Shown here: positions 5,867 through 27,777 of the stretch, piece by piece | Position numbering within the stretch: the first letter of the stretch is position 1 | Layout of the letters: every line of letters starts with the position of its first letter | NCBI GenBank assembly: GCA_963575745.1 | Contig: CAUYUJ010000037.1 | Location: forward strand, 434,001-498,000 | Origin: Prorocentrum cordatum | Lineage: Eukaryota | Direction: 5' to 3' | DNA length: 64,000 bases | Notes under the pieces: model-generated | What the model was told of the DNA's origin: nothing | Seen by the model: only the letters and a program-made list of their open reading frames with translations | Database searches by the model: none | Position numbers and translations under genes: made by a program

Positions 5867-7219
5867 CCAGGCATGCTACGGGGCGCTTCCGCGCCCGCAG
5901 AATCAGCGCGTCCGCGCGTGAGCCCGCGCGCGAGCCGACGAGAACGAGAGAGGTGGCAACAAGACAACTTCAGGACAGCCCCCGTCCAAGCAAAGCAAGG
6001 ATGCATGGACGCGAGCATGCCGCCACCGAACGAGAGGGGGAAAACCGAAAAAAACAGAGTGACGTCATGTGCATCCTTCATTCCTGGTCCTCTTAAGCCA
6101 TTTCTTCTTGTCATACCACGAGGCTGGTCGAACGGGTGGGCTGGGCGTCGTCGCCTGAGGCTCCCGAGCCACGCATGCTCCTGACGCTGAAAAGTTACAG
6201 CGCGTTGGGCGGATTCACGGATGGAGGGCGGGTTGTTTTTAACGTGTGGTTTTCGCTTCAGCGTCGCGCGCGCTCTTCTCAAACGAATTACACATATATT
6301 CCAAACGTAGCAACAACTTCACGGATGGATTGCGGGCAGTTTTCAAAATGCGTCTGTGGCCCCAGAGCCGCGCGCAGCCGCTTTAAGCAAGTGCAAGAGC
6401 TTCACGGATGGATGGTGTGTGTGTGTTTTGATGTAAATGTGGCTATCGCTCTAGTGCCGCGCGAACTCGTGTTTCCAGAGCCGGAAGAGTTTCACGGATG
6501 GGAGGCGGCCTGTTTTCAAAATGTGGTTCTCATGGATAACGTCCCATACATAACGTTTTGGCACGATGTCGGATCGTCGGGGTGCAACACGTACATTGGA
6601 TCGTGGTGCGGAAGTCCCATGAATAGTGTTCTGGCATGGCCAGGGTCGTTAAGATACCAGAGTAACGGTGCTTCGCGTCGCTGAAGTCCCAGGAAGGTGG
6701 TGTTTTGGCACAGATCAGAATTGTCAAACGGTTGTTTTCCAACGGGGCACTTCCTTCAGTGAATCTTTGTAGGGGCCTATGGAAAGGGAGTTCGGGGGGA
6801 GGGTTCATTTCAATATCGTTGCTGAGTCTTTGGTTTACACTGGTCCTCCTCCGCATCCCCCCTCCAGCTCCTCCCCGTCCCCCTCCTCCTGGAGCCAGGT
6901 ACGAACCGCTGTCGCATGCCCTGCAGCTCAGCGTCGCCAGCGCGCACGGCTCCCAGCGCAGCCCGCGGGTCGGCCTCGCTGCCCAGGTGGAGCCAGACCC
7001 AGGCCCTTATCGGGTGATAGAGGGGAGCTTGCACCACTCTGCGCACTCCCTGAGATCCGGGCGATGTATTTTTTTGGCATCGGGCGTTTTTGCACAGTTT
7101 CGGGGCAACCATCACAGATCGATCTGGCTCGATCTGGCTCGATCTGGTCGGGCGTCGCGCGGGCATCGCGGCGCGTCTTGGAAGCTTCTGGATCTGGGGC
7201 GATCTTCGCGAATGTGAAA

Positions 7220-7733
7220 ACACGCAGGACCCTGGCAGAACACAGGGGCATGGCAGAACCCGCAAAAGCACGGCAGAACACCGCAGAACACGCAGAACAC
7301 CCAGGATCACGGCAAAACACAAAGGAGCACGGCAGAACGCACAGGAGCATTGCAGAAGACATTGAACTCAGGAGCGTGGCAGAACGCGCAGGAACATGGA
7401 CGAACACAGGAGCAAGGCATTGGAGCACGTCATAACGCACAAGAGCACTGCAGACCACGCAGAAGCACGGCCGAACGCACAAGAGCACAGCATAACACAC
7501 AGGAGCACGACAGAGCACACAGAAACACGGCAGAACACACAGGGGCACGGCAGACTACAAAGAATACGTTGGAGCACGGAAGAATTTTCAGGAGCACGGC
7601 AAAACACGCAGGAACGCAGGAAAACACCCAGAACATCTATTCACACAGCCGCACGCATGGGCACACGCGCACACAGGCACACGCACACACAGGCACACGC
7701 ACACGCACACAGACACGCAGGCACATACACACA

Positions 7734-7768
<35 letters not shown>

Positions 7769-7900
7769 GCACGCGCACACAGGGAGGCAACATACATACA
7801 CGCAGGAGCACGGCAGAGCAGCACGGCACAACACAGCAGTGCTGCAGAGGCACGCATGCGCGCGCAAACGCACGCACACCACGACAGACTTGTGCAGCAC
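7220..7900. repeat. Degenerate GCACGGCAGAACAC-type minisatellite grading into (CA)n
   Basis: Recurrent gcacggcagaacac/acacaggagca units; (CA)n at ~7735-7765. Confidence 0.85.
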
Positions 7901-7979
7901 ATGCGAAACAACGTATGATATCTCATAAACCCAGGGCACAATACGACGCTTTCCGTTCTTGTCCGGTCAGGTTCCCTAG

Positions 7980-10900
7980 AAAATCGCACCTCCTGGGAGA
8001 GGCCGAAAACCCTTGCACAGGGAGCCCCGTTGAGACCTGCGCCCTTCTCACGGGGGGGGGCCAAACAATCTGTCGCAAGGGGCCCTGAGCTCTCCAGAGC
8101 GCTCTCACAAGGGTCCAAGGGGGGCCCGACACCTTCTCGCAGAGGGCCTTGCGCCCCCCCCCCCCCGGGGGGCTCCAAACAGTCTCGCAGGGGGCGCTTC
8201 ACCTTCATTACAGCGGGCGGGGGGTGGGGGGCAAAGCGGGGCACAAAAACATGTTCGAAAGGGTTGGCGAGCCCCTAGACTGAATCGCCCCTGAAAGGCC
8301 AAAACCGTCACACAGGGAAGGGACCCAGGGCCCTTTCACAGGGGGGCCGAAACCCTCCCGAGGGGGGCAGCAATGCTGCCGCACGGGGGGCAGAAGGCTC
8401 TCACGGGACAGGGGGGCCAACACCCTCACAGGGTTTACGGGGGGGGGGGGGGGCAACAGAAACGCTTTCGCAGGGAAGCTCAAATCCTCGCACGAGGGGC
8501 GAACGCCTTCCCACGGGGGCGTTCCGAATCCTGTCACCAGGAGGCACGCATCTCCGCGCAGGGGGCCCAACATCTTTTCCACAAGAGGGACCGACACCCT
8601 TTCACGAGGGGGCCCAAAACCGTTTCATGGGGTGCACAAACTCCATCGCGCAGGGCCAACATGTTTTCGCGGGGGCGCAGAAACCCTTCTACGCATGGCC
8701 GAACATGCATGTTCCAACAATTAACCCGGGGCCCTCTCGCGGGGGGGGGGGGGGGGCAGACCCCACTCGCAGGGGGCCGCGGACCTTTTCGCGCGAGGCC
8801 ATGCGCCGTCTCACAGGGGCTACAAACCCTTTTTCAGAACATCTTCACAAGGGGGGCCCAACTCTTTTCACAGATAACACAACACCGATTCACAGGGGGA
8901 CCCAAACCCTCCCGGGGGCCCATACGTTCTCACAGGAGTCCCGAAACCATCTCACAGGGGGGGCAACATCTTTTCATCGGGGGCCCAAACCGTTTCGCAG
9001 GGGACCCTGGAACATTCTCACGCGGGCCCCGAACCTTTTTCACGGGTGCCCCAAAGCGCTCATGTTCGAGTCAATCCTTCCCTCAGCGGGGCGCATGAGT
9101 GATCTTCAGAAGTGGGGCTGGTGCCACCGAGACAAGACACCAGACGGGAAACAGCTGCAAATGCTGTGGTGCGTTGTGGCCGTCGACGAGACACTTAGAG
9201 TGCGTTTGCGCTCGTTTTCGCTTGTATCGCGAGGACCGACATGATTGTTGCAACCTGCCAGCAAGCTATCACGGGTGCGCCAGGGCCCCTCTCGCAGGGG
9301 CGCTCCAAACCGTTTTGCAAGACGTGAGCGAGGTTTGGAAGAAACGCGGTTACGGTACCAACGTCAGGCACGAGCTCCGGGAGCACCGCCTCAAGACACA
9401 GTTCGCGAGAAGTTGGGTCAGCATGAAACGAATGATATTGATGTTGAGGGCAGCTCTCCCCGAGCGGGGTTTATCTTTGCATCCTACAAAGTGCAAGGTA
9501 CAAGCGACTCGAGACGATTTCTCGCGGCGCGGGCAGGTGTGCCTAGCTGAAGGATTCTCCATCGAAGTTATGCAACCCGGGGAGACCTTGGAACTCTTGG
9601 GAATGGTGCTGTCTCTACAGGACTCCACCGGACCAAAGATTGCAAACCGGATCGCCGTTGGATGGAGGAAGTTCTGGGCGCTGAAAAAGTTGCTTCTCAA
9701 CAAATCAGTTTGGATCAGGAAAGATTGTTTGTTTTCCCCCGACAGCACGGTCGCAGGAATAATCATGTGGTCATCAAAGTCGTGGTCACCGAGGGCTGAA
9801 GAAGTTAGCAAATTGAGAGTCGCGCGACACACGATGTTACGACGCATGGTTGGGTTACCAGGGGCAGCGATGAGCCATGGGTTGATTGGGTGCAGAGAGC
9901 AACGTGCAAGGTCCGGCGCCTTGCCCGAGAATGCTCGGTGAAGGAATGGGCCCCCGAACGCTCCAAGAGGGAATGACGGCGGGCAGGCGAAGCGGCGAGG
10001 AAAGATCAGGGATAATGGGTTTGGAAAGTTACAGATTGTCGAGGTTCGGAATGGCAGGCCGCCGCCAGTGAGCTCGGCGCACTGCGTCTCCGGAGGCCGT
10101 CGTGTCGCAGATGGATTGCGGTTCGAAGACAATATCAAGCGGTTCTGTGTTGACCAAGATTTGCGCGCGTGGAAAGTGACTGCAGCTGGGGAAGTTTGGC
10201 AGCGACACCGGGGCGTGGTCGTGAACTGGGCGGCGGAGGCCAAGTTCGACAGTTGAGACCTCAATGGAGGTCCTGCCCCGCGCGGGCCACCCTGGCAGGA
10301 CTTGATCCTTATCCCTATCCAAACCTTTTTGCATGGCGGGCCCAACGCCCTCTCATTGGGGGCCCGAACCCCCCCCCACAGGGGCACCCGAAACCCTCCC
10401 ACAGGGGGGCGCGCCACCCTCTCGCAGGGGGGGGTCCAAATCCTGTCGCAGAGGGGATTCGACACTCTGCAACGGGGGCCCAACACCCTCCCGGGGGGCC
10501 CAAAACCTTCGCGCAGAGGGGGCGCACGGGGGGGGGCAACACTTTCGCGCTGGAGTCTCAGGGGCGTTCAAGACCTTCGCGCGGGGGGGCGCAGAAGGGG
10601 GCCAAAATCCCCGCGCTGGAGGACACGCGGGCGCCCAAAACCTTCGCATTGGGGGGCGCAAGGGTGTTCGGAAGGGGCGCAGAGGGGGGCCCAAATCCGT
10701 CGCGCCGGAGGGCACAGGGGCACCCAAAACCATTGCACAGGGGACCAAGACCTTGCCACAGGGGGCCCAAAACCGGCGCGCCCGGGGGCACAGGGGTGCC
10801 CAGAACCTTTGCACAAGGGGGCCCGACACCCCGTCACAGGGGAGCCCAACACCTTCGCGCAGGGGCGCCCAAAACCGCGTCACAGGAGGCCCGAAACTTA

Positions 10901-11570
10901 AGGGAGCACAGGGGGCGTCCAAAATCTTCGCGCAGGAGGGCCAAGAACCGCATCGCAAGACGGCCCAGAACCCCTCGCGCAAAGGTGCCCAAACCGTGTC
11001 ACAGGAGCGCGCGTCACAAGGGTTCCCAAAACCTTGCCACTGGGGGCCCAACACCGGGCGCAGGGGTACCCAGAACAGTGCCACAAGGGTGTCCGAAACC
11101 GCGCCACAGGGGCGCCGAAAACCGCGCCACAAGGGTGCCCAAAATCGTGCCACAGGGGACTCAACACCCGGCCACAAGGGTGCCCAGAGACGCGCCACAA
11201 GGGCGCCCAAAACCTTCGCACAGGGGTGCCCCCAAAATCTCGCACAGGGGGGGGCATTTCTTGTCGCAGGGGGCGCGCAATTCCCCGCCACAGGGGGGGG
11301 CCAAATTCCCTATCACAGGGGGTGCCCCATGCCCTGTCACAGGGGGGGGGCGATTCCCTGTCGCAGGGGGCGCTCGATTCCCTGTCACAGGGGGTGCCCA
11401 ATTCTCTGCCGCAGGGGATGTTCGATTCCGTGTCACAGGGGGTGCCCAGGTTCTGGTGACACGGGGTGCCCAGTTCCCTGACACAGGGAGGGCCCAATTC
11501 CCTGACAGGGGGTGCCCGACTCCCTGTCTCAGCGAGGTGCCCAACATCCTGTCACACGGGAGGGGGCCCA
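7980..11570. repeat. Degenerate CACAGGGGG(T)GCCCAAA minisatellite, interrupted by an RTE-like LINE fragment
   Basis: Repeated (c/g)cagggggcccaaa-like units at ~7980-9055 and ~10321-11570. Confidence 0.8.
9060..10320 (+). mobile_element. 5'-truncated, decayed RTE-like LINE (C-terminal half of RT)
   Basis: Motifs VRQG(d)PL, GLSLHPTKCKV, LELLG, IANRIAVGWRKFWALKKLL, STVAGIIMWSSKSW and MLRRMVG. The 3' end has short ATCC(T/C)T tandem repeats (~10306-10320), as typical of RTE-clade tails. Confidence 0.8.
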
Positions 11571-11717
11571 AACGTATCGTAAGAACAAGTCACGCGTTCT
11601 TAAACACAGCTGGGCAAACAAACAGCTTCCTCGTATCATACTGCCCACCCTCCCGCATCACCAGATCGACTCGTCCTTGCCGTACGAACGGCTCACGGAA
11701 TCGTCAGAACAGGCAAC

Positions 11718-12264
<547 letters not shown>

Positions 12265-12291
12265 GGGTTGACCTCCGTCTGTTTGCCCAAG

Positions 12292-12557
12292 GGCGCGCCT
12301 GGCGCTGCTGGAGCGCTTGGCGCGCCTGGCGCACCTGGCGCACCTGGCTCACCTGGCACACCTGGCGCACCTGGCGCCGCTGGCGCACCTGGCTCACATG
12401 GCGCACCTGGCGCGCCTGGCGCACCTGGCGCGCCTGGCGCGCCTGGCGCACCTGGCGCACCTGGCGCACCTGGCACACCTGGCGCACCTGGCTCACCTGG
12501 TGCACCTGGCGCGCCTGGCGCACCTGGCGCACCTGGCGCCCCTGGCGCGCCTGGCGC
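12292..12557. repeat. 9-bp tandem repeat (GCGCACCTG)n
   Basis: About 29 copies of a 9-mer; it translates as Gly-Ala-Pro on both strands. Confidence 0.95.
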
Positions 12558-13733
12558 ATACGAAACAAATACGAAACGCATGCGAACCGTATCCGAAACA
12601 TACACGAAACGCATAGGACATGCATACGAACCGCACCCGAAACATCTACGAAACGCATACGAACCATGTACGAAACGCATACCAAACATATACGAAGCAG
12701 ATACCAACCACATACGAAACACATACGAAACATGTTCGAAACTTAGACGAAACGTATACGAATCATATACGGAACGCATCCACAACGTATACGAAACGTG
12801 TACCAAACGCATACGAAACATATACGAAACGTTTACGGGACATCGGCGGAACACAGACGAAACATGTACGACACTTATGCGAAACATGTGCGAAACAGAT
12901 ACGAACCGTTGACGAACCATATACGAATCCTATACGGAACAAATACGACGTACACACGAAACATATACGAATCAGCTACGAAACATATACGACACATATA
13001 CGAAACATATACGAACCGCATACGAAACATCTACGAAACATGTTTGACACCTATACGGAACAACTACGAACCGCATACGAAACATATGCGAAACATACAC
13101 GAAACACCTGCGAAACATCTGAGAAACCTATACGGCATATATACGAAACATCTCCGACACATATACGAAACGCATACGAAACATATACGAACTTGATACG
13201 GACCATATACGAAACATATACGAAACAGATACGACACTTATACGAAACGTATACGAAACATATACCATGTACGAAACATATACGACACATACACGAAACG
13301 CACACAAAACGTATACGAAACATACGCGAACCACGTGCGAAGCGCATACGAGCCATATACGAACCACATACGAAACATATACGAAGCATATACGAAGCAG
13401 ATACGAAACATCTACTAAACGTATACGACACATCCACGACACATCTACGACACCTATACGAAACACATACGAAAGATATACGAAACATTTACGAAACACA
13501 TACGAAACATCTACGAACCATGTATGACACATCTACGAAACATATACGATACACGTGCGATACATATACGGGACATATACGACACGCATACGAAACATCT
13601 ACGGTATACGAAGCACCCACAACACACATACGAAATATTCACGAAACATCTACGGCACAGCTACGAAACATCTACGTAACATTTACGAAACATACACGAA
13701 ACATACACGAACCATACACGAAACATATACGAA
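12558..13733. repeat. Degenerate TACGAAACATA minisatellite, left block
   Basis: Dense ~10-12-bp acgaaacatat units. Confidence 0.95.
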
Positions 13734-13810
13734 CTTACTGGCCCCTCACGGGAGCCGTGCCCCAATGCGTCTCCAAGACCCGGGGTGTGCGCCCAGATCC
13801 GTTGACGATC

Positions 13811-16800
13811 ATGCAGATCGCCCCAGACGTGCAGGCGCGTGCGGTGACTATCTTTGCTGCTCTAGCAGGCTTTTTCTTTGTTTTTGGCGCGGCCGTGGTG
13901 CATGTTTTGTACTATTGGCCAGCGCTCGTCTTTTCGGAGACTCTGTCCGCCTGCTGGAGCATGTTTAATATATCTGTAACTAAAGCTGGGATCAGCACTG
14001 CGCTTACTCTAAATGCGCTCGTCACCACGATGATTTTCACCGTCGCCATCGCGCTCCCCTGCGCGGGTTAGATGCGCGTGGTTGGCGCGAATGCTGAACC
14101 CTGCAAAATGGAATTGCAGCAGATGCGAAGGGAGACTCAGGATGTCCACCGGCGTGCTCAGACAGCTTGGGAGAGTGCTGCTGCATCGCGCGAACGGGCC
14201 AATCTCGCGACGCTCCGCATGGGGCGGGAGGAAGACAATCGGAAGCTAGATGAGATCCTCTGTAAACAGGATGAACAGTTGAAGCAAGCAACCGAAGAAC
14301 GTGCGATGGCCAACCGCGCCTCCGCTGCTGCGGAGACTTACCATGACGCATGCGGTAACGACGCCGCCCATCTGCAGTCCAGAGGAAAGGGCCTTGGGAA
14401 AGAAGATCGTATGTGCCGCAACTTTGCGAGTTCAGGCTTCTGCTCTTACGGGGTAAACTGCAACTTCGCTCGCGGCGTCGTTCCCAACGCTCCCGCGAGG
14501 AAGCCTAGGAACTTCCTGATGCTGCTCGTCGCGCTCACTATGGGCATTGCATTGGGCGCAACGTACAAGCCCGAGTACCCTGTAACGGATGATGGAGCTG
14601 CGCCCGCCGCCATCCCCGCGGGGGGCGCGCTTCAGCCCGCTCCGCCCACCAAGCCGCCAGCAGTCCAGGACCAAGCATCGGGCGCAACATGCGAGTCCAA
14701 GGGTCCTGAAGCGGGCGATGGAGTTGCATCTGCCGCCATCTCCGCGGCCGGCGAGCTTCAGCCTGTCTCATTCACCACGTCTCAAACGAATCAGGACCAC
14801 ACCGGTTCCTCGATGGGGAGGTTTGGTGTATTTGTTGGACAGTCTTTTGATCGCAGTGACATGATTGGTATGTTGGCAGACCGCAGCGATGATCACATGT
14901 CTAAAGACGTCAAGTCTGTAACGACTAGCTTGTTAGTGGACCAGGATGACGATGGCGTTTCGAAGGATATTAAGTCACTTCGCCAGGTAATCAATAACCT
15001 CGACGCTTCTTTTACCTCAACACACTGCCGTGGAGTACGAATAGAGGTATCACTAGTTGCACTTTCTCGACCATCGATGAAGACAACAACCTCCTTCCGC
15101 CACCCGCGTGGAAAGATAACTTCATGAAACATGTCAACCAGAATGGCCAGGGGCCTCAGAAGCTTGACGAAGTCACACATTACGCCTCGACGCGTCTTGT
15201 GACTATCAGTGCCACCAGGACCAGGGGCGCACAGGTCGACGCTGGTGCGTTTAGGCTGCAAACCACCGACAGTTTCCACGCATTCTTCAGTCCTTTGGTC
15301 GTGAGACAGACGCAACCCAACCTGCTTGCCAAGGGGATGGGCGACTGGATCTCGGAAACTGGCAAGAGTCATCCTTGGCTGACACCAAAGACCGACGCCG
15401 ATTATGGCCAGGTATCCAAGGCATATGCGACTATCATGTCGGATTTCTGTGTTGAGATGGCTAACGCCACGACTGTCGCTCGCATTGTCGTCTGTGCGTT
15501 CACGAGAAAGTTAGTGGCGACAAGGATATTGTTTGACACATTATTCTCTTGCCTGAGACCGACTACTCACCTGTGTCTACGTCTCCACAGTTCGCCAAAG
15601 GATCTCATGGCCATAGCTGATCTTTTTGACGTTGTGGACTCTTCTGGGGATGATGTTGCCCGCCTTCGAACTCTAATTGGGCGGGCGATTGGAACGACAT
15701 ATCAGAATGTGAAAACGGTGCTTACCGCACTCGTGGAGAGACCGATCGCATTAATTCGATGATGTCATCTATGTTGGCTCACGAAACCAACGCCGCAGAC
15801 TTGAAGCAGATGATTGTGGATGAGCAGAGCAAGTACATGGCTGATCAAAAAGTTTCGAAGACTCAACTGGACTACATAGACGAGCGAGTAAGGACGCAGT
15901 TCCAGAACGTTGTGTCTGAGGTCAGCGACCTCAAGTCGCAGTTGACCTATTTGAATGCTTGGGCTCAGAGGCTTGCCAACGAGCATGCGCGCCACTCCAA
16001 ACCATTCACTGCTATACCCGGCAAGTCCGCACTGTGGCATCAACGTTCGGATGGCACATCGCAGGATTTTGAGAAATAGCGGCAGCTCACCAACCAACAT
16101 TCTGCGGACATCAACATTAGAATCGATCCGCTGGCATCTATGGTTCGGAGCCTCAACTTGCCTGTTTGTGAGTTTTGGCGAACGTACGATCGCTCCTGGT
16201 ACTCAGTGAACGACAAGAAGGTTTTTCCTGTGCCTTGGGGGGTCGCCGTTCCAGACGCCTACGATGAGGCAGCCGCCTTGTTGAAGCGACCTCGCTGCAT
16301 CGATGCCAGGCTCCGCAGCTCCATTGAGGTTTTCATCGCATGGGATCAACGTAAGTACATCTTGATTGGACGGAAGGCCCCTAATGTTTTGTTCAACAGC
16401 CCCCCAGTCCGGGGCCCGTCGGGAGGAAGGGTGGATCCATGCAGAGATGCATTTTACAGGGCCTGTAATCCACAATGACTGCACTCCTTTGGCATCTATC
16501 GTGACGACTAACGTGGACCACAATATCGCGCTCCTCACGTTTCTCCTTATAGTTTTGGCTGTGCACGCTCGCGCCTGTCACAGCTCACGCGGGCCGCTTA
16601 CCAGAGCATCACGCATTGTCCTCTTCTTCTTGACCTTTACGTTTATGGTTGAAGTTGCGACGTCAGAAACAGACGAAGCTATTGCCGAAGCTCTTGTGGA
16701 TTATGCCGTGCGCGTGCGTTCCGTTAGCACTCACTTCATGGGCCGCGGCTGCAAGTGGAAGACGCTGCGTGCGCAGAAAGCCGAGCTCGCCATTGTGAAA

Positions 16801-19800
16801 GAGTTGGAGCCCTTTTTTTTCCATGGCGAAGGACCGCTGCACGACTGCTTCCTCTGCCGACACGTCACTCGACTCTGTGCCAACAATCGGCGGCGCGACG
16901 CCAGAGCGTGGCCCACCTCGTGGCTCAGATCACGGACAGCAGCTGGTTTCCTTGCTGCCACGCACCCAAGATCTCATGATCATGTGCGGCTCGCCTATAC
17001 CGGCTGTCTACGGGCAGTTTTGCGAAGTCAAAGTGGCAGTCAAACGCATCCGCAGGGAGCTCAACTTCACTAGCAAATGTGGTACTTCTTTCTCAATTGA
17101 TGACGGCCATGTGGACAAGTGGTCTTCTATGGGATCTATATTTGCACCACCTATTGCATTCTCCCCACCGCTGACTCGCGAGCCGCCAACGCCTCGTTCA
17201 TCTGATATTTCCGACGATGATCATTGCGAGGCCAATTCTTTTTGACATGTCATGAGGGAAATATCAACAGGCTGCTGTCGGTATGAAGCGCGTCTACGTC
17301 GAAGCGACAGTGGGGAAAGAAATGACAGCCAGACTTCACGGAATGAAAGTCGTCATTGCCCAGGTTATGTTCAAAGACGTTGTCTTTCCTTTTCAAGCAC
17401 GCACTGGCTCTATTTCGGTTGCGTCTACAAGCGAGCAGTCCTGTACAAGCACTTCTCTGAAGTACCGCAAACCGCAGACGATTGCGAACGCCGAGGCCTA
17501 CTGCTTTCATTTGAAGGCCTCTAACTATAATAGCGGAACTATCAGTGAACCGTATAGGGTCCTGACGCACCTTCAGGTCGGTGATTGGATTATCCCAAGC
17601 GCGCACGTTCGCCATTATCCCGCAAGTATGATATCTGATGGCCATTGCAAGATGGAGTCAGCATCTGAGTGTATCGGCGCTTGTTTTGACGCTCCCCATA
17701 TCATGTGGCTCAGCACCAGGAATGAGGACGCCAACGCCTACGCTCGTCAAATCACACATGCACCTGTGACTATGCACGCTCCTGTGATTTCCTGTCAGCC
17801 CGCATCATCTTCAGGAGTCTTCTCGCGCTCGCGGCATAGTGGACTTTGGTCTTTCTGACGACACTTGCATTGAAATGACGAGGATAGGCGCTGGCGAAAA
17901 TATTATTTTCACGACGGGGGCTAAAATTGAGTTTGAGGCGAAGAAGTCGAAGAGGATGAATAACCAGATTGCTCTCGCCTTCGGTGACCCTTGTGGTAAC
18001 AAAAAGGTGGATTGCATTAGCGACGATTCGAAGCTAGCGATGGCCCGACCTTCTTTGTTCATCCCAGGCCCTCATCTGCACCTGCTTGGAAGCCTGATGC
18101 AGTTTACGGACGTAAATTGTTCGGGCCAGGGCTACTGCGTCAAGACTCCCGGCCAAGACACGGAATGCGCACTTCACGTCCTGCGTCAGATTGGTATCAA
18201 GCCCAGGTGCGCAGCGCCGGCCGAGGGTCTCAACGCTGTTTGCGTGGACCATGTTGGGCCCGCCGGCACCTGCGCCATACCAACGGATGAGCTGGCCGAC
18301 GATTTTTCTGTCGCAGAATCAGTCATTAACAGGCGCGTCCGCACCTCATTCGGGAGTACTACGACTGGTGAAATGCCCACGACAGAAGGGGAAGTTGCCA
18401 TCCCCGCGTGGTCAGCAATCGCGATTTCGATGTTCCTTTCATGTGCCTCAAGCCTGATACTTCCTCAGCGTCGTGATTTGGCCGAGGACTTGAAGGGCGC
18501 CGTACACATACTTTCAGTAGTGATCTTTGCAATGATGCCTTTTCTACTTCGTCGGAGTCGCAACAATGTTTTGGGCGACGCCTTATTATTTAGGTTGTTT
18601 GATTTGCAGCCATGACACCAGTAACTTAGCTTGCAGGCTTTCCACGGTACCACTTGCCTTGACTACAACGTTTTGCCCGTGGCCTGCCACATGGTGCATT
18701 ATTATCGTAGTGGGTTCCTGTTGTTACTTTTACCCTGGTGTAATGGGCTCCTCTCAGGCAGTCATTGATTCCTTAGCTCATGGGGCGCTCATGGGCAAGG
18801 GTGCGGGCCCTTACCTCTGGGCCCTCGCCATTGATTATATGCCGGCCGATGCGCGCTGGTGGCGTTCGATAGCCGCCGCCTGCACGATGGGACCCCGGAC
18901 ATTCATTGGCTTTTTGTACACCACATACGCGCTTGAACTAGGTTCGGGCGAGGCGTCATGTGCTGTCGACGCCGTCGCCTCTATCATTCCTCCACGCCGC
19001 TACCAGCTACCATTCGGGCCGCCCTTCAACGAGTTCGATGCAGGAGTGACAATAGGGGCCTTCGCCATGGCGTCGTCACCAGCCATTTTCATGATTTGCG
19101 TGGTGGATGGGGTCAGCAATTTGATTGAGATCTTTTCTTTCTTCCACATATGCAATTATTTCCTGCTTTCTCAGACTGGCTCCACTGTCGTTTCGACCCA
19201 AGTCTCTAGGTCCGTGGAAGTGGCCATCACTACGTTCACCACGTTCTCCGTGACCAATGACGAACTTTGCATCGCCATGGCCGTCATTTACGCCACGCTG
19301 CCATTAATCAACACAGGAAGAGCAAGGCCTCATTCGCTCGCCGAGAAGCGCGCGCAGAGGGCGCTGCCCACTTTGGCTGCCCTTGAGGAGAGGCGTAACC
19401 GAGCCAATCGTCCAATCACCATTGACCCACAGCCTATGCATTACCAGGTTCTGGAGAGGATCGCCAATACCATTGATGTCTGCACCACGCCCGTCGAGGA
19501 GACGCTGGCTGCCCACGCTGCACCGACTTCCCTCGATGCGACTCAGGAGAACATGGCGACTTCACTCCCAGACATGCCCGAGGAGGCCATCACCGATGAT
19601 TCAGTCGTCCCTGAACTCGCGGAGTGGAACGCCGACGCACCTGTCGGCGCTGTCGATGCGCAGTCAACGATCAATGACTGCGTGGCCGCGACCCGCGTTA
19701 TTTCAGGGGCACCTAACACGTTCGCGGCTGACACGCTCATCAGCGCGGACTTTGAGACCGGGCGCAAGACCTTCTCGGCACATGTCTTGGTGAGCGATAT

Positions 19801-20311
19801 CACCAAAGAGACTCCAGAGTCATTGAAGAGGCAGTATATCATTGTATGCTCGACGAGGAAAGGCGCGAAGGTGGCCAAGGAGACGGCCATATTCAGCGCG
19901 ACGAGCGTCACTCGCGTCACCATCCCGAACATTGCGCAGCTCATCGATTACCTCATCACCGGCACGCTCAGCGCATCCGCAGCTCTCCAGGCGACGGCGC
20001 TTCCTTCTGTCTCGGACGACACGAAGGCGCAGCACCAGGTCGCGACAATGGCCTTCATCGAACACAGGATGGTCGCCTCAAGTAACGGCGTCACGCCCGC
20101 CGTCACGGCGTGTCTTACTGGCGCGCCCACAACAGACACCACCACCCCAGCCTATACCTTGGATACGATTACAGCCAAGGGCATGAGCAACGGCTCAGTC
20201 CTGAAAGTGCATGGGTACTCCGAGGGCTCGGTGGAGAAGCGTGCGTACGCGCGCGTCGCCGTCCTTTACGGCAAAGTGGGGTCCAAGCCCTACTTGATTG
20301 CCCTGCAGTAG
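13811..20311 (+). pseudogene. Decayed ~2,100-aa multi-membrane polyprotein: TM, coiled coil, CCCH-like Zn finger, signal peptide, helical ectodomain, TM/signal, Cys-rich ectodomain, multi-pass TM region, soluble C-terminal domain
   Basis: Abutting + strand ORFs (13811-14071, 14072-15127, 15124-15762, 15759-16079, 16140-16478, 16366-17073, 16823-17245, 17283-17858, 17839-18615, 18566-20311). Stops at 14069, 16077 and 17243 are followed by same-frame coding sequence. CRNFASSGFCSYGVNCNFAR lies at 14414-14473. Confidence 0.65.
18566..20311 (+). CDS. Longest open segment of the insert (581 codons): hydrophobic multi-pass region plus soluble C-terminal domain of unknown function
   Basis: Uninterrupted non-repetitive ORF with several hydrophobic stretches (e.g. 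WCIIIVVGSCCYFY, IFMICVV, LCIAMAVIYATLPLI). Confidence 0.55.
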   Translation: MFWATPYYLGCLICSHDTSNLACRLSTVPLALTTTFCPWPATWCIIIVVGSCCYFYPGVMGSSQAVIDSLAHGALMGKGAGPYLWALAIDYMPADARWWRSIAAACTMGPRTFIGFLYTTYALELGSGEASCAVDAVASIIPPRRYQLPFGPPFNEFDAGVTIGAFAMASSPAIFMICVVDGVSNLIEIFSFFHICNYFLLSQTGSTVVSTQVSRSVEVAITTFTTFSVTNDELCIAMAVIYATLPLINTGRARPHSLAEKRAQRALPTLAALEERRNRANRPITIDPQPMHYQVLERIANTIDVCTTPVEETLAAHAAPTSLDATQENMATSLPDMPEEAITDDSVVPELAEWNADAPVGAVDAQSTINDCVAATRVISGAPNTFAADTLISADFETGRKTFSAHVLVSDITKETPESLKRQYIIVCSTRKGAKVAKETAIFSATSVTRVTIPNIAQLIDYLITGTLSASAALQATALPSVSDDTKAQHQVATMAFIEHRMVASSNGVTPAVTACLTGAPTTDTTTPAYTLDTITAKGMSNGSVLKVHGYSEGSVEKRAYARVAVLYGKVGSKPYLIALQ

Positions 20312-20750
20312 CTGCCGCGGGATTTTCCCGCTCGATGCTGCTGCGTTTTTTTCCTACCGCCTCGTCACGCGGCAGTCGCTGTTTCCGTGGCCTTTGCCGG
20401 CTCGAGCTAACGACGTCACGAGCCCTGCTCGTCTCTCTTTCGCTCTCGGAGCGGTCAGGCTATGCCTGATAATTCGCATGTCCTATTTCACTGTGCACCA
20501 CCGCGCCCCAGGGCGCACCCGCTTGTGATCTTTCCTTGACAATGCGCAACGCGTTGCTGCTTCAGACAAACTGATGCAATTTAAGCTGGGCATCCGCTAT
20601 GATCTCGACAGCGCTTCCGTGCGGCTCTAGCTCCTGCTTCCACACCGAAACGCACTGCAGAAGACGCCTGCCACTGCCTCGTCATCCCGCGTACCCTGAC
20701 GCCTGTCAGAATGCTGCCCGCCATGCATACTTGGACTAACGTCAAAAACA

Positions 20751-21428
20751 ACGAAACATATACGAAGCAGGTACGACACGTATACGAAACGTATACGACA
20801 CGTATACGAAACGCGTACGAAACACATACGAAACATATACGACACGCATACGAAACAGATACGACACATGCGCGAAACATACACGAACGATACACGAAAC
20901 ATATGCGAGACACATACGAAACGTATACGACATATATACGAACTGTATACGAAACATGTACGACACATCGACGAAACCTTTCCGTACCGTATACGAAGCA
21001 ACTACGAAGTATATACGAAACATATACGAAACATATACGAAACAATTCCGACCCACAGACGAAACATATGCGAAACAGATACGAACCATATACGAACCAC
21101 ATTCGAAACATATACAAAACATACACGATACATCTACGAATCATATACGAACCACATGCGAAGCATTTACGCCACATATGCGAAACATATACGAACCACA
21201 TGCGAAACATATAAGAAACATATAGGACCCAAATACGAGTATACGAAACATATACGAAACATGCACGAAACGTACACGAAACATATACGAAACAACCACG
21301 AAACATACACGACACGTATACGAAACATATACGAAACATACACGAAACGTATAAGACACATTAACGAAACATATACGAAACATGCACGAAACGTATACGA
21401 CCTATATACGAAACATATACGAAACGCG
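20751..21428. repeat. Degenerate TACGAAACATA minisatellite, right block (same orientation as left block)
   Basis: Same unit and strand as 12558-13733. Confidence 0.95.
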
Positions 21429-21516
21429 CACGGCGCGACCGCGGCACAGAATCCCCACCACACTCCCTACACTCCTTACACCAGATTAAATTGGGCAAAC
21501 AGAACGAGGTCAGCCC

Positions 21517-21549
<33 letters not shown>

Positions 21550-22239
21550 CAGCAGTAGTAGTAGTAGTAGTGGTAGTAGTAGTAGTAGCAGTAGTAGTAG
21601 TAGTAGTAGTAGTGGTAGTAGTAGTAGTAGGAGTCGTAGTCGTAGTCGTAGTAGGAGTAGTAGTAGAGTATCGTACTTGCAGCTGTAGTAGGAGTTGTCG
21701 TAGTAGTAGTAGCAATCGTAGCAGCAGAAGTAGAAGTACAAGTATAAGTGGAAGTAGTAATCACAGTGGTAGTAGAAGTAGTACGAGTAACCGTAATAGT
21801 AGTAGTAGTAGTAGTAGCAGTAGTAGTCGTAGTAGCAGCAGTAGTACGAGTGGTAGTCGTAATCGTTGTCGTTGTCGTAATCGCAGCCGCTGTAGTAGTG
21901 ATAGCAGCAGGACTGGAAGTCGCAGTAGTAGTAGTAGTCGTAGTTGTAGTAGTAGTAGTGGTAGTAGTAGTAGTAGTAATAGTAGCAGTAGCATTAGTAG
22001 TAGTAGCCGTAGTACTCGTAGTACTCGTAGTAGTAGTGGTAGTAGCAGCAGCCGCAGCAATAGTAGCAGCCGTAGTCGTAGCAGCGGTAGGAAGAGTGCG
22101 AGCATACATATTATCCGTATAATTGACAGTCGTAGTTGTAGGGATAATCGTAGTAGTTATGGTCGTAGTTACAGAAATCGCTGTAGTCGCCGTAGTAGTA
22201 ATAGTAGTCGTAGTAGTAGTAGTAGTAGTGGTGGTAGCT

Positions 22240-22282
<43 letters not shown>

Positions 22283-22502
22283 GAGTAGTAGTAGTAGTAA
22301 TAGTAGTAACAGTGGTAGTAGAAGTAGTAGTCGTGGTCGTAGTAGCAGTAGTAGTAGTAGTAGTGTTCGGTAGTCGTGGTAGTAGTCCAATATTTGTATG
22401 CGTAGCAGTAGCAATAGTAGTAGTCGTGGTCGTAGTAGCCGTAGTGGTCGTCTTAGTTCTAGTAGAAGTGGTAGTCGCAGTAGTAGTAGTAGTAGTAGTA
22501 GC

Positions 22503-22534
<32 letters not shown>

Positions 22535-22568
22535 TAGTGGTAGTAGTAGTAGTGGGTGTAGTAGTAGC

Positions 22569-22612
<44 letters not shown>

Positions 22613-22626
22613 TAGTAGTAGTAGTC

Positions 22627-22659
<33 letters not shown>

Positions 22660-22791
22660 CGAGTACGAGTAGCCGTAGTAGTAGTCGTTCCAGCAGTTGT
22701 AGCAGAGGTAGTCGCAGGAGTCGTAGTAGCAGGACTAGTAGTCGCTGCAGTCGCAGTATTCGGGGGAGCAGCAGGACTAGTAGTAGCAGTG

Positions 22792-22839
<48 letters not shown>

Positions 22840-23392
22840 ATAGTAGTAGTAGTAGTAGTAGTACCGCCCCCCCCCCCTTTGATTTGACCCCGATACTCCC
22901 TTCTTGGGGGACTCCCCCCCCCTCTGCCCCTCCCTCCCTGAGGAGTCCAATCATTCGCTTCATGGGGGGAGGCCGCGGCCCCATGAAGCGAATCCCGCAT
23001 GCTCGGGGGGCGAAAGTCCAAAAACACAGGAAACACAACAAAAAAAAAAAAACAAAAAAAACAATCCTGGCGACCTTTTCGCCCTCCCCACCCCCTCCGA
23101 GGAATTCCTCAGGATTGTTTTTTTTTTTTTTTTTTTGTTTGATTTTTCGGCCCTCCACCCTTCCCCCTGGGGAGCGGGCGGCCCCAGGAGCCCCCAAGAG
23201 GACCGTGGGAGGCACCAGAGAGCCCCCAGAGAGGCATGATGAGAGGTTGTAGTAGCAGTCGTAGATATTGTAAGAGTACTAGCACCACTGATAGTCGCAG
23301 TGGTAGAATTACTAGCCGTAGTAGTAGTCGTAGTTGTGGTCGTAAGCAATGATAAACGTGGCGATCGTAATAGTAGTCGTAGTACTTTAGAC

Positions 23393-23464
<72 letters not shown>

Positions 23465-23650
23465 CCGCCCCCCCCCCCCCCCCTTTGATTTGACCCCGAT
23501 ACCCCCTTCCTGGGGGACTTCCCCCCCCTCTGCCCCTCCCTCCCTGAGGAGTCCAATCATTCGCTTCATGGGGGGAGGCCGCGGCCCCATGAAGCGAATC
23601 CCGCATGCTCGGGGGGCGAAAGTCCAAAAACACAGGAAAAACCAAAAAAA

Positions 23651-23689
<39 letters not shown>

Positions 23690-24047
23690 AATCCTGGCGA
23701 ACTTTTCGCCCTCCCCACCCCCTTCCGAGGAATTCCTCAGGATTGTTTTTTTTTGTTTTGTTTGTTTTTTTTTTTGTTTTTCCTTGTGTTTTTTTGGTTT
23801 TTCGGCCCTCCACCCTTCCCCCTGGGGAGCGGGCGGCCCCAGGAGCCCCCAAGAGGACCATGGGAGGCACCAGAGAGCCCCCAGAGAGGCATGATGAGCG
23901 GTTGTAGTAGCAGTCGTAGATATTGTAAGAGTACTAGTACCACTGGTAGTCGCAGTGGTAGAATTACGAGCCGTAGTAGTAGTCGTAGTTGTGGTCGTAA
24001 GCAATGATAAGCGTAGCGATCGTAATAGTAGTCGTGGTACTTTAGAC

Positions 24048-24095
<48 letters not shown>

Positions 24096-24319
24096 GTAGT
24101 AGTAGTAGTAGTAATAATGGTAGTAGTAGTAGTAGTATCAGCCGTAGTAATAAAACCGTAGTAGTAGTTGCAGTAGTAGTAGCACTAGTAGTAGTAGTAG
24201 TAGTAGTAGTGGTAGTAGTAGTAGTAGTAGTGGTAGTAGTAGTAGTAGTAGTAGTAGTAATAGTCATGGCAGTAGTAGTAGCAGTCGTAGCCGTAGTAGT
24301 AGTACTAGTTGCGCGACTG

Positions 24320-24368
<49 letters not shown>

Positions 24369-24395
24369 TAGTAGCAGTAGTAGTAGTAGTAGTAA

Positions 24396-24427
<32 letters not shown>

Positions 24428-24975
24428 GTAGTAGTAGTACTAGTAGTAGTAATGGTCGTAGTAGTAGTAGTAGTAGTAGCAGTAGTAGTAGTAGTAAAAA
24501 AGAAGTAGTAGTAGTAGTAGTAGTAGTAGTTACCGTAGTCGTATTAGTCGCGGTATTACTAACAGTAGTAGTAGTAGTAGTAGTAGTAGCAGTAGTAGTA
24601 GTAGTAGTAGTAGTAGCCGTAGTAGTAGTAGCAGTCGTCGTAGTAGTAGTAGTAGTAGTGGTAGCAGGAGTAGTCGGAGTGGAAGTAGCAATGGTAGTAA
24701 CAGTAGTAGTAGTAGTAGCAGCAGCAGTTGTAGTAGTAGCAATAGTAGTAGTAGTAGTAGCCATGGTAGTAGTAGCCGTAGTAGTGGTAGGAGTAGTTGT
24801 AAGAAAATAGGAGCAGCCGCTAAATAATAGTAGCAATCATGATAGTAATATAATAGTAGCAGTAGTCGCATTACTGAGAAAAATAGCATGAGTAGTAGTT
24901 GCAGTAGTAGTCGTAGTAGTAGTCGTAGCAGGAGTCGTAGTGGCAGTAATAGTAGTAATAATAGTAGCAGTACTC

Positions 24976-25015
<40 letters not shown>

Positions 25016-25350
25016 GAGTAGTAGTACTAGTACTAGTAGTAGTAATAGTAGTATTAGTGGTAGTAGTAGTAGTAGTAGTAGTAGTAGTACTGAGAAAGGT
25101 AGTAGTGCCTGCCGAAGTAGTAGTAATAGTAGTAGTAGTAGTACTACTACTACTACTACTACTAGTGGTAGTCGTAGTAATAGTAGTGGTCATAGTAATA
25201 ATGAAAGCGGCCGTAGTCGTAGTAGTAGTCGTAGTAGTAGTAGTAGTAGTAGGAGTAGCAGCAAGGTTATTCTGAATAGAAGTAGTAGTAGCAATAGCAG
25301 TAGCCGTAGGAGTTTTATTCGTATTAGTAGTAGTAATAGAAGTAGTAGTT

Positions 25351-25416
<66 letters not shown>

Positions 25417-25518
25417 ATGGTAGTGGTCGCATTAGACATTGTAGTCGTAGTCGTAGTAGTCGTAGTAGTAGTAGTAGTAGTCGTCGTCGTAGTAGTAGTA
25501 GTAGTAGTAGTCGTAGTG

Positions 25519-25551
<33 letters not shown>

Positions 25552-25552
25552 A

Positions 25553-25587
<35 letters not shown>

Positions 25588-25805
25588 AGGTAGTAGTAGT
25601 AGTAGTGGTGGTGGTAGTAATATCAGTATCAGTACTAGTCGGAGTGATACTAGTAGGAGTACTACTAGTAATAGTAATACTAACAGTAGTAGTCGTAGTA
25701 CGCCCCCCCCCCCTTTTGATTTGACCCCGATACGCCCCCTCCCCGGCGTCGCTGCGAGGGAGGCGGCGTTCGTTTTCGCGGGGCTCATGCGAGGCGGGTA
25801 TGTGG

Positions 25806-25839
<34 letters not shown>

Positions 25840-26038
25840 GCTACTGCTACTTATAGCATTATCATTATTATTGTTGCTACTACTACTATCACTACGACTA
25901 CGACTACTACTACTACTACTACTACGACTACTACTGTTAGTATTACTATTACTAGTAGTACTCCTACTAGTATCTCTCCGACTAGTACTGATACTAGTAT
26001 TACTATCACCACCACTACTACTTTTACTACTACTACCT

Positions 26039-26073
<35 letters not shown>

Positions 26074-26185
26074 TTACTACTACTACTACTACCACTACGA
26101 CTACTACTACTACTACGACGACGACTACTACTACTACTACGACTACTACGACTACGACTACAATGTCTAATGCGACCACTACCAT

Positions 26186-26254
<69 letters not shown>

Positions 26255-26584
26255 AACTACTACTTCTATTACGACTACTAATACGAATAAAACTCCTACG
26301 GCTACTGCTATTGCTACTACTACTTCTACTCAGAATAACCTTGCTGCTACTCCTACTACTACTACTACGACTACTACTACGACTACGGCCGCTTTCATTA
26401 TTACTATGACCACTACTATTACTACGACTACCACTAGTAGTAGTAGTAGTAGTACTACTACTACTACTATTACTACTACTTCGGCAGGCACCACTACCTT
26501 TCTCAGTACTACTACTACTACTACTACTACGACTACTACTACTACTACTACCACTAGTACTACTATTACTACTACTAGTACTAG

Positions 26585-26620
<36 letters not shown>

Positions 26621-26976
26621 GAGTACTGCTACTATTATTACTACTATTACTGCCACTACGACTCCTGCTACGACTACTACTACGACTACTACTGCAACTA
26701 CTACTCATGCTATTTTTCTCAGTAATGCGACTACTGCTACTATTATATTACTATCACGATTGCTACTATTATTTAGCGGCTGCTCCTATTTTCTTACAAC
26801 TACTCCTACCACTACTACGGCTACTACTACCATGGCTACTACTACTACTATTGCTACTACTACAACTGTTGCTGCTACTACTACCACTACTGTCACTACC
26901 ATTGCTACTTCCACTCCGACTACTCCTGCTATCACTACTACTACTACTACTACGACGACTGCTACTACTACTACGG

Positions 26977-27014
<38 letters not shown>

Positions 27015-27057
27015 GTTAGTAATACCACGACTAATACGACTACGGTAACTACTACTA

Positions 27058-27119
<62 letters not shown>

Positions 27120-27155
27120 TCTTCTTCTTTTTTACTACTACTACTACTTCTACTT

Positions 27156-27189
<34 letters not shown>

Positions 27190-27207
27190 GACCATTACTA
27201 CTACTAG

Positions 27208-27251
<44 letters not shown>

Positions 27252-27269
27252 TTACTGCTACTACTACTG

Positions 27270-27306
<37 letters not shown>

Positions 27307-27485
27307 CAGTCGCGCAACTAGTACTACTACTACGGCCACGACTGCTACTACTATTGCCATGACTATTACTACTACTACTACTACTACTGCTACTACTACT
27401 GCAACTACTACTACGGTTTTATTACTACGGCTGATACTACTACTACTACTACTACTATTACTACTACTACTACTACTACTACTAC

Positions 27486-27527
<42 letters not shown>

Positions 27528-27741: not shown

Positions 27742-27777
<36 letters not shown>

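Follow-up and report, generated by a model that had tools for sequence, protein, structure and literature searches.

A 7-kb insert within a Prorocentrum satellite array: a possible decayed retrocopy of an mRNA for a dinoflagellate-restricted orphan membrane protein

Retroposition in dinoflagellates has been called rampant (PMC11453091). Endogenous dinoRNAV elements, which are Alvernaviridae-like endogenous viral elements (EVEs) of RdRp and major capsid protein (MCP) in Symbiodiniaceae, are described (PMC10235124) as fragmentary, neutral (dN/dS 0.958 for MCP) and probably LINE-inserted. The locus presented here lies in a 64-kb window, the whole stretch of DNA that was analysed, in which a unique insert of 7,017 bp at positions 13734-20750 splits a satellite with an 11-bp unit (ATACGAAACAT). 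These bounds follow from the satellite limits given by TRF (12558-13733 and 20751-21425); the discrete 7-kb insert described in the original prediction therefore has satellite on both flanks, and an insertion event has interrupted the array. The first ATG (13811) lies 77 nt from the insert start and 439 nt remain 3' of the final stop (20309-20311), matching the predicted ~77 and ~440 nt. No other copy of the insert was found within the window. Our preferred explanation is that a long mRNA, coding for an orphan membrane protein restricted to dinoflagellates, was retrocopied into the satellite, probably by target priming, and that the copy then decayed; we assign this reading a probability of roughly one half.

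12558-13733, no strand: upstream half of the split satellite array, with 11-bp unit ATACGAAACAT (TRF)
13718-13733, + strand: left copy of the target-site duplication (TSD), ACGAAACATATACGAA, 16 bp, exact match to 20751-20766
13734-20750, + strand: insert of 7,017 bp, formerly coding on one strand, GC about 0.50-0.58
20312-20750, + strand: non-coding tail of 439 nt, kept in the P0001 copy (see below) at least to 20466, ending in GTCAAAAACA
20751-20766, + strand: right copy of the TSD, 16 bp
20751-21425, no strand: downstream half of the 11-bp satellite array (TRF)

The target site is duplicated. The duplicated 16-mer is the commonest variant of the satellite unit (7 of 73 units upstream, 8 of 49 downstream), and the chance that two 16-mers drawn at random, one from each array, match is P = 3.7e-4 (about 4e-4). 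The satellite register is off by 5 nt and is restored only on removing one TSD copy. Target-primed non-LTR insertion produces duplications of roughly 7-20 bp, and a TSD of 16 bp fits this mode better than it fits DNA transposons or LTR elements. No terminal inverted repeats or LTRs were found at the insert ends; the seven inverted pairs detected (14-32 nt) are all internal. The 3' end, GTCAAAAACA, is a short A-rich run (A5CA) without a long poly(A), and the adjoining TSD copy begins with A. The term retro-integrated, which had only been asserted before, thus gains some support from the 16-bp TSD and none from a long poly(A) tail. With only A5CA in its place, we infer the RNA intermediate rather than observe it.

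Retroposition of mRNA does operate at this locus, as seen from retrogenes in the same window that carry exact 16-nt DinoSL relics (at 35185, 38967 and 42838, each scoring 32) ahead of TOD1/MUCI70-like genes. At the 5' end of the insert the best local DinoSL score is 14 of 42, so that no relic is recognised, as had been predicted. This counts against the favoured reading, since a full-length host retrocopy should carry such a relic; a 5' truncation would explain its absence, and the frame of the first coding segment extends without a stop to the insert's very first base, indicating that the copy may be 5'-truncated. The missing SL relic and long poly(A) would also suit a capture at the DNA level, in which break repair or segmental insertion brought in part of a host gene poor in introns without an RNA intermediate, and repair of a staggered break can likewise duplicate a few bases. 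However, the 16-bp TSD together with an A-rich 3' end on the coding strand fits target-primed insertion, and in our reading the make-up is that of an mRNA, with about 6.5 kb of uninterrupted coding sequence and a tail of about 440 nt, a length fitting a 3' UTR. Such a capture is accordingly considered very unlikely.

The coding part of the insert was divided into the following segments, with reading frames denoted f0, f1 and f2.

13811-14071, + strand: segment a, 86 codons, two hydrophobic helices; its TAG (14069-14071) directly abuts the ATG at 14072
14072-15127, + strand: segment b, 351 codons, with a charged helical stretch, RGKGLGK, the CCCH finger, a TM-like helix (14510-14566) and a Pro/Ala-rich stretch; its TGA overlaps the next ATG as ATGA (15124-15127)
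14414-14473, + strand: TTP/TIS11-type zinc finger, C-x8-C-x5-C-x3-R, from Pfam zf-CCCH and PDB chain alignments
14998-15762, + strand: segment c, frame f0, ATG 15124, 212 codons; its stop overlaps the next ATG as ATGA (15759-15762)
15654-16478, + strand: segments d and e, frame f2, split by an in-frame TAG (16077-16079); d is a charged helical stretch
16366-17073, + strand: segment f, frame f0, with the hydrophobic pair IALLTFLLIVLAV and IVLFFLTFTFMVEVA
16799-17524, + strand: segments g and h1, frame f1, in-frame TGA at 17243-17245; degradation is greatest here and the GC3 phase weakest
17256-17858, + strand: segment h2, frame f2, 200 codons
17788-18615, + strand: segment i, frame f0, 275 codons, with 10 Cys followed by TM-like helices (18406-18462 and 18490-18546)
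18566-20311, + strand: segment j, an intact ORF of 581 codons, with N-terminal hydrophobic helices and a soluble C-terminal half
19661-19939, + strand: conserved core of segment j (aa 366-458), common to P0002 (see below)

A path of about 2,160 codons through the + strand, from 13811 to 20308, encounters only 10 disruptions, comprising 7 frame changes and 3 in-frame stops. The open frames are f1 (13601-14068, a TAG, 14072-15124), f0 (14998-15759) and f2 (15654-16076, a TAG, 16080-16475) in the 5' part; f0 (16366-17070) and f1 (16799-17242, a TGA, 17246-17521) in the middle; and f2 (17256-17855), f0 (17788-18612) and f1 (18536-20308) in the 3' part. The in-frame stops noted earlier at 14069, 16077 and 17243, each with same-frame coding sequence beyond it, all recur in this chain. 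Crossing 13811-20308 takes at least 10 disruptions on the + strand and at least 31 on the - strand, compared with 36.8 +/- 3.3 (minimum 26) in 200 dinucleotide shuffles. The GC-richest codon phase (GC3) switches exactly along the frame path, most weakly at about 16900-17780, and where the frame switches, successive open frames share 22-90 codons, the pattern that simple indels would leave. No intron-like gaps occur in the coding chain. The insert was thus coding on one strand and has decayed, and these comparisons uphold the earlier description of an intronless frame of roughly 2,100-2,200 codons; its ancestor was probably a single ORF.

The first three junctions are tight, with TAG directly abutting ATG at 14069 and ATGA at both 15124 and 15759. 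By a rough, post-hoc estimate the chance of three such junctions is about 0.003. They are not expected of random decay, are at odds with the favoured reading and stay unexplained by it. They would be accommodated if the roughly ten ORFs (86-581 aa) were real, separate genes of a low-copy non-autonomous mobile family or compact polycistronic element, as might the TSD, the presence of an ATG near the start of the open frame in every listed ORF, and the existence, in this organism or its genus, of two or more additional versions. Against this, none of the last 7 junctions is tight and overlaps of about 90 codons occur in two ORF pairs, while the hydrophobic helices span the i/j junction as if they belonged to one protein (our reading). 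Copy number is also low, with a DNA depth of about 3 for the insert, as for single-copy sequence in run X1, and with no second copy in the window; RT, endonuclease, transposase and integrase are all missing from a six-frame Pfam scan. We regard such an element as quite unlikely. A further point against the favoured retrocopy is that the last ORF is intact, where the upstream density of disruptions predicts 3.7 (P = 0.026).

The motifs quoted in the original prediction are all present, namely RGKGLGK, the CCCH-like finger, the signal-like NFLMLLVALTMGIALGA, IALLTFLLIVLAV and IVLFFLTFTFMVEVA. Hydropathy gives two N-terminal hydrophobic helices, and 10 TM-like segments overall, in line with the several TM helices proposed. 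The N-x-S/T sequons attributed to a Cys-rich region did not hold up as a signal, as they are not enriched (7 in 2,156 residues, compared with 10.7 +/- 3.1 in shuffles); the Cys content of the translated frame path is 2.9% overall. Segments d and e have only weak coiled-coil-type Pfam matches (E 0.017-0.1), and two AlphaFold models (pLDDT 34.6 and 36.5) were too poor for a fold search. In PDB sequence searches of six segments only the CCCH finger was matched.

The finger scores 21.2 bits with zf-CCCH (PF00642; cut-off 20.5, E 2.8e-4) in the ORF and 19.1 bits in the read-through frame, and the matching PDB chains are TIS11d (1rgo, E 2e-6), tristetraprolin (1m9o) and MEX-5. Its assignment as CCCH-like stands for the three Cys, their spacing and the flanking residues, but not for the fourth ligand, where Arg replaces the final His of the family, which makes zinc binding by this copy appear doubtful. 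Judged by its sequence, the finger is of the cellular tristetraprolin/TIS11 type and is the sole recognisable domain of the insert.

Pfam searches of 10 ORFs and six read-through frames found only zf-CCCH, with no RdRp, RT, integrase, protease, capsid or glycoprotein; the six-frame scan also found no endonuclease and no transposase. The earlier remark that no RdRp, RT or integrase relic is recognisable is therefore correct. An autonomous retrotransposon (LINE, LTR, DIRS or Penelope) was considered and rejected, there being no RT, endonuclease or integrase in six frames and no terminal repeats. Among the other open frames of the window, 1 of 108 has a Pfam match, so that a lack of matches is normal here.

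An exhaustive search of 1,835,955,588 proteins with segment j (581 aa) returned two relatives, neither of them full length. P0001 is a Prorocentrum cordatum gene model with 84% identity over 396 aa and no gaps; P0002 is an Amphidinium carterae fragment of 131 aa with 44% identity (E 1.2e-12). No protein relatives were found for the upstream segments, and the protein searches revealed no intact or intron-containing parent gene; the library holds one representative per 50% cluster, and short fragments fall outside the length ranges of some searches. The stretch 3' of the segment j stop, translated in an arbitrary frame, is identical at 61 of 78 positions (78%) in the P0001 copy, compared with 84% in the coding part, indicating that coding and non-coding parts have diverged to a similar extent. 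When neutral change was simulated up to this amino acid divergence, which takes about 95 substitutions in 1,188 nt, 13% of runs stayed stop-free; neutrality is thus not rejected and the divergence of P0001 is compatible with neutral drift. A second genomic copy, about 7-9% diverged and with a 1-nt deletion at 17615, was seen at segment h2 in DNA contigs of run X1. The only relatives found are dinoflagellate records, and the family has so far been seen, by sequence similarity, only in dinoflagellates (Prorocentrum and Amphidinium).

It had been proposed that the insert encodes a structural polyprotein of an enveloped RNA virus. This is not borne out: no viral family is matched in Pfam, PHROGs or NCBIfam (the latter two give zero matches for the insert), the sequons show no excess, and the finger is cellular. 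Scans of viral contigs gave 13, 110, 1, 5 and 5 pattern matches and scans of metagenome contigs 201 and 195, with 0 confirmed relatives in either. Toti-like and partiti-like virus families are non-enveloped, and some viruses use tight stop/start junctions for coupled translation. The RNA viruses reported from Prorocentrum cultures, which also weigh against a viral source, are toti-like and partiti-like (PMC9599419). Viral origin is nevertheless unsupported rather than refuted. The insert is an orphan, with neither a host parent nor a wider dinoflagellate family found in protein searches; its TM helices are numerous and one stretch contains Cys residues; it lacks the DinoSL relic that neighbouring retrogenes have kept; and its tight junctions could reflect coupled translation. 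Neutrally evolving, probably LINE-inserted EVEs of non-retroviral RNA viruses are moreover known in dinoflagellates (PMC10235124). That the insert is an EVE, retro-copied from an mRNA or a genome segment of some unknown dinoflagellate virus, possibly enveloped, with genes for membrane or structural proteins, is on balance unlikely. A more specific form of this idea, equally doubtful, is the fossil of an unknown dinoflagellate virus or virus-like mobile element with translationally coupled ORFs (TAG|ATG, ATGA, ATGA), which would have encoded small membrane proteins, an RNA-binding zinc-finger protein and a large multi-pass membrane protein, been endogenised at least twice in Prorocentrum, and have a relative still expressed in Amphidinium.

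A processed pseudogene of a host 'dark' gene is favoured over a viral fossil. The cellular-type finger, the dinoflagellate-only relatives and the SL-relic retrogenes in the window are host-like features and suggest a host origin, whereas the patchy-looking family, limited to Prorocentrum and Amphidinium in a library of one representative per 50% cluster, would suit a mobile or viral source. In the favoured mechanism, a long RNA of at least 7 kb would have been copied into the satellite of 11-bp units, most probably with the borrowed machinery of a LINE-type element performing target-primed reverse transcription; about 7 frameshifts and 3 nonsense changes would have accumulated in the copy since. 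The product of this RNA may have been one long protein of 2,150 aa or more, or else several proteins encoded in tight succession, bearing about ten predicted membrane-spanning helices, a single putative RNA-binding finger of the TTP/TIS11 CCCH type, charged helical stretches and a conserved soluble C-terminal domain.

If this retrocopy reading is true, the insert adds a further processed pseudogene to a genome in which retroposition is known to be rampant; it would be of modest use, as a clean example of a TSD inside a satellite and as a handle on a 'dark' dinoflagellate membrane-protein family bearing a TTP-type finger. If the viral reading is true, it would give dinoflagellates their first trace of a virus lineage that is rich in membrane proteins and possibly enveloped, and the sequence would be a probe for the living virus in Prorocentrum and Amphidinium cultures.

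Compared with dinoRNAV EVEs, the insert is likewise a non-retroviral, fragmentary sequence fixed in a dinoflagellate genome, with divergence compatible with neutral drift and a probable LINE-mediated insertion; those elements are defined by homology to RdRp and MCP (PMC10235124), while the insert has no viral protein homology in the Pfam and viral-contig searches. Dinoflagellate retrogenes and processed pseudogenes share with it the intronless coding on one strand, TSD, A-rich 3' end and decay, but derive from DinoSL-trans-spliced mRNAs, and the insert has no 5' DinoSL relic, long poly(A) or identified parent gene. In bunya-type glycoprotein precursors (GPC) a zinc-finger tail, consisting of a CCHC pair, precedes the internal signal. 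The insert resembles these in having its finger directly upstream of a signal-like helix, and resembles enveloped-virus precursors more widely (bunya GPC, alpha- and flavivirus polyproteins) in its long frame with several internal hydrophobic helices. It differs from them in having no family match, in the C-x8-C-x5-C-x3-H type of its finger and in its unenriched sequons. With the tristetraprolin/TIS11 fingers it shares the pattern CR-F---G-C-YG--C-FA-G and the C-x8-C-x5-C spacing, and it aligns to both TIS11d and TTP fingers; in contrast with their tandem pair and final His, the insert has a single finger with Arg as the fourth ligand, flanked by a helical stretch on one side and a TM helix on the other, within a protein of about 2,100 aa.

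The insert may be read as a retrocopy, placed in a satellite and since decayed, of the mRNA of a 'dark' host gene for a membrane protein; we assign this reading a probability of roughly 0.5. Its position among the surrounding arrays and genes is as follows.

Features in and around the insert (window positions)
10358-11560: GC-rich repeat arrays of 21-24 bp and 46-72 bp, units e.g. CACAGGGG-GCCCAAAACC, immediately upstream of the trinucleotide satellite
11718-12265: AGT trinucleotide array, outside the upstream half of the 11-bp satellite
12292-12558: 9-mer array, unit GGCGCACCT
12558-13733: 11-bp satellite, upstream half
13734-20750: the insert, 7,017 bp of complex sequence between the two satellite halves
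20751-21425: 11-bp satellite, downstream half
21517-22863: TAG trinucleotide array, outside the downstream half; one unit with AGT, in rotation
24048-25700: additional (GTA)n array
34000-45500, + strand: TOD1/MUCI70 glycosyltransferase-like tandem array, period ~3.8 kb (Pfam E 2.9e-11 and 1.5e-9)
35185-35200, 38967-38982 and 42838-42853, + strand: DinoSL relics, exact over 16 nt, each after AG

The compound satellites (11718-13733 and 20751-25700) are roughly symmetrical about the insert. The region 24000-33500 has a low GC content (~0.38-0.46) and an extreme GC skew, reaching +0.63, with a single reversal to -0.57 at 26-27 kb. There is no second copy of the insert within the 64-kb window, and Rfam returns two rows only over 13000-21500, both at chance level (E 0.67 and 0.83).

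The 16 bases preceding the insert are identical to the 16 bases that follow it (ACGAAACATATACGAA). Among the variants of the satellite unit this 16-mer is the most frequent (7 of 73 units upstream and 8 of 49 downstream), and the probability of agreement for a random pair of 16-mers, one from each array, is 3.7e-4. The 11-bp register continues correctly only after removal of the insert together with one 16-bp copy. A target-site duplication of this size is what target-primed, LINE-type insertion typically leaves, unlike LTR elements or DNA transposons; neither terminal inverted repeats nor long terminal repeats were found in the insert. The 3' end is GTCAAAAACA, with no long poly(A), and alignment found no DinoSL relic at the 5' end, where a likeness to DinoSL in CCGTGCCCC...CTCCAAG, first suspected by eye, is unsupported. 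The original prediction had described the insert as retro-integrated: the mechanism of insertion is now better supported, by the duplication and the register, while an RNA intermediate is likely but not proven, given the missing long poly(A) and DinoSL relic. Capture of the sequence at the DNA level appears very unlikely. Retroposition of host mRNA is rampant in dinoflagellates (PMC11453091). The window itself is dinoflagellate DNA, in which every unit of the 3.8-kb tandem TOD1/MUCI70-like array follows an exact 16-nt DinoSL relic (GCCATTTTGGCTCAAG); these units are SL-trans-spliced genes that were retroposed and then tandemly amplified.

Open frames on the + strand of the insert chain from 13811 to 20308 through three in-frame stops (14069, 16077 and 17243) and seven frame changes. 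The minimum number of disruptions needed to cross the coding stretch, counted by dynamic programming, is 10 on the + strand and 31 on the - strand, compared with 36.8 +/- 3.3 (minimum 26) in 200 dinucleotide shuffles; low + strand counts (9-19) also occur in some GC-richer parts of the window, so the count by itself does not set the insert apart. The GC-rich third-codon phase shifts in step with the frame path, most weakly at ~16900-17780. The coding signal originally described is confirmed, and the motifs and hydrophobic helices listed with it are all present. At the frame switches, neighbouring open frames overlap by 22-90 codons, as would be expected if single indels had broken one continuous frame. 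Because the frame is already open where the insert begins, the copy may be truncated at its 5' end. No internal duplication was found among the segments (best BLASTP pair E 0.16). At 1-9500 in the window the + strand is also far more open than the - strand (9-10 versus 23-26 disruptions per 6.5 kb); its open frames have no Pfam match, and this region may hold further 'dark' coding sequence or pseudogenes, oriented like the insert and the TOD1 array.

Searching the ten ORFs and six read-through frames (X at stops) against Pfam identified zf-CCCH as the sole family, with 21.2 bits in the ORF (cut-off 20.5) and 19.1 bits in the read-through frame. The same finger was the only part matched when six segments were searched against the Protein Data Bank; it aligns with both the TIS11d and tristetraprolin fingers (CR-F---G-C-YG--C-FA-G), with an Arg in place of their last zinc ligand, His. 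By its sequence, the finger belongs to a cellular and eukaryotic type of RNA-binding module. In the ORFs and six frames Pfam found no family of RdRp, RT, integrase, protease, helicase, capsid or glycoprotein, which bears out the absence of RdRp, RT and integrase reported at the outset, and PHROGs and NCBIfam gave nothing credible on the insert. Of the window's other open frames, 108 were searched and only one has a Pfam match (131 were listed; 23 were omitted, 7 of them from the repeats at 10154-12909 and 16 as duplicates of array units), so the missing Pfam matches are not special to the insert. The predicted structures of the C-terminal 311 aa (three-sequence alignment) and of segment c (14998-15762) alone have pLDDT values of 34.6 and 36.5, respectively, and are unsuited to fold comparison, since matches from such models are meaningless. 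In the ESM Atlas, the top score for the last ORF (0.88, with low recognition) falls on fungal DUF6532 clusters and is taken as noise; segment i (17788-18615) gave no usable match.

The last ORF (581 aa, 18566-20311), searched against 1,835,955,588 representative proteins, has two relatives at E <= 0.001. The first, P0001 (CAK0896659.1), comes from Prorocentrum cordatum, where it is entered as an 'unnamed protein product' of 464 aa, and has 84% identity over 396 aa, gapless; this gene model is the insert's only close protein relative. Two sources assign its sequence to Prorocentrum cordatum and a third assigns it to Polarella glacialis, which we take as a labelling matter. The second, P0002, is a 131-aa Amphidinium carterae EukProt entry (44% identity across aa 366-458, E 1.2e-12); the C-terminal core conserved between the two lies at 19661-19939. 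A word-indexed search with the last ORF returned P0001 only. The 351-aa ORF that carries the finger (14072-15127) had no homologue among 8,000 candidates scored (193-615 aa), and a profile built jointly from seven upstream segments, sensitive to close paralogues only (its own segments score 124-306 bits in a local test), found no relative at 110-615 aa. The family may be wider than two records, as the representative library conceals members of 50% clusters and the word-indexed and upstream-segment searches were limited to length ranges that leave out long proteins as well as short fragments of transcripts. Among viral and metagenome contigs there were pattern matches and no confirmed relative, in both cases a weak negative, since such scans depend on short exact or near-exact peptide patterns. 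Two runs from other organisms of the same study contained nothing matching the insert.

P0001 reads on beyond the stop codon of the insert in another frame (20110-20469), which places a frameshift between the two copies near 20270. After the stop, in this arbitrary frame, identity is 78% (61/78) compared with 84% in the ORF, indicating that coding and non-coding parts have diverged alike. Constraint on the last ORF might be expected from its stop-free copies; however, neutral simulation to 63/396 amino acid differences (~95 substitutions) left the frame stop-free in 13% of 2,000 runs, and neutrality is not rejected. The insert is found in DNA contigs of one run, at a depth of ~3, probably the source. 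Variant contigs in the same run, at 17613-17708 (~7 differences and a 1-nt deletion) and 20057-20363 (7 differences), imply that the organism has at least one further diverged copy, extending upstream of the last ORF.

Stop and start are tightly joined at the first three junctions: TAG abuts ATG at 14069-14074, and the two codons overlap as ATGA at 15124 and 15759. The remaining seven junctions are not tight. The chance of the three tight ones is ~0.003, a rough value estimated after the pattern was seen (two -1 switches with A before TGA, ~0.05 jointly, and ATG after one of three in-frame stops, ~0.06). From the density of disruptions upstream, 3.7 would be expected in the last ORF, which is intact (P = 0.026). 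Given the tight junctions and the intact last ORF, at least the 5' part may instead have been a series of coupled ORFs, as occur in some viruses, and not a single ORF that was broken. A low-copy mobile or polycistronic element is quite unlikely. The tight junctions also suggested a bacterial operon or phage, which is rejected: PHROGs and NCBIfam are empty, the finger is eukaryotic, and the insert lies within dinoflagellate satellites with a target-site duplication. Pararetroviruses are likewise compact (7-8 kb) and have ATGA junctions; RT, RNase H and protease are all absent from the insert, and this origin is also rejected.

The original prediction, that the insert is a fossil of a structural polyprotein from an enveloped RNA virus, is rather unlikely. 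It draws solely on architecture; the homology and composition tests able to support it are all empty, with no viral family and no enrichment of the N-glycosylation sequons it had cited (7 versus 10.7 +/- 3.1), and the sole identifiable module, the finger, is cellular. The RNA viruses reported from Prorocentrum cultures in PMC9599419 are toti-like and partiti-like, and a paper on MMETSP RNA viruses (PMC9927876) mentions neither Amphidinium nor Prorocentrum. The insert, which has neither RdRp nor capsid homology, differs in this respect from the known dinoflagellate EVEs, which are identified by one or the other (PMC10235124).
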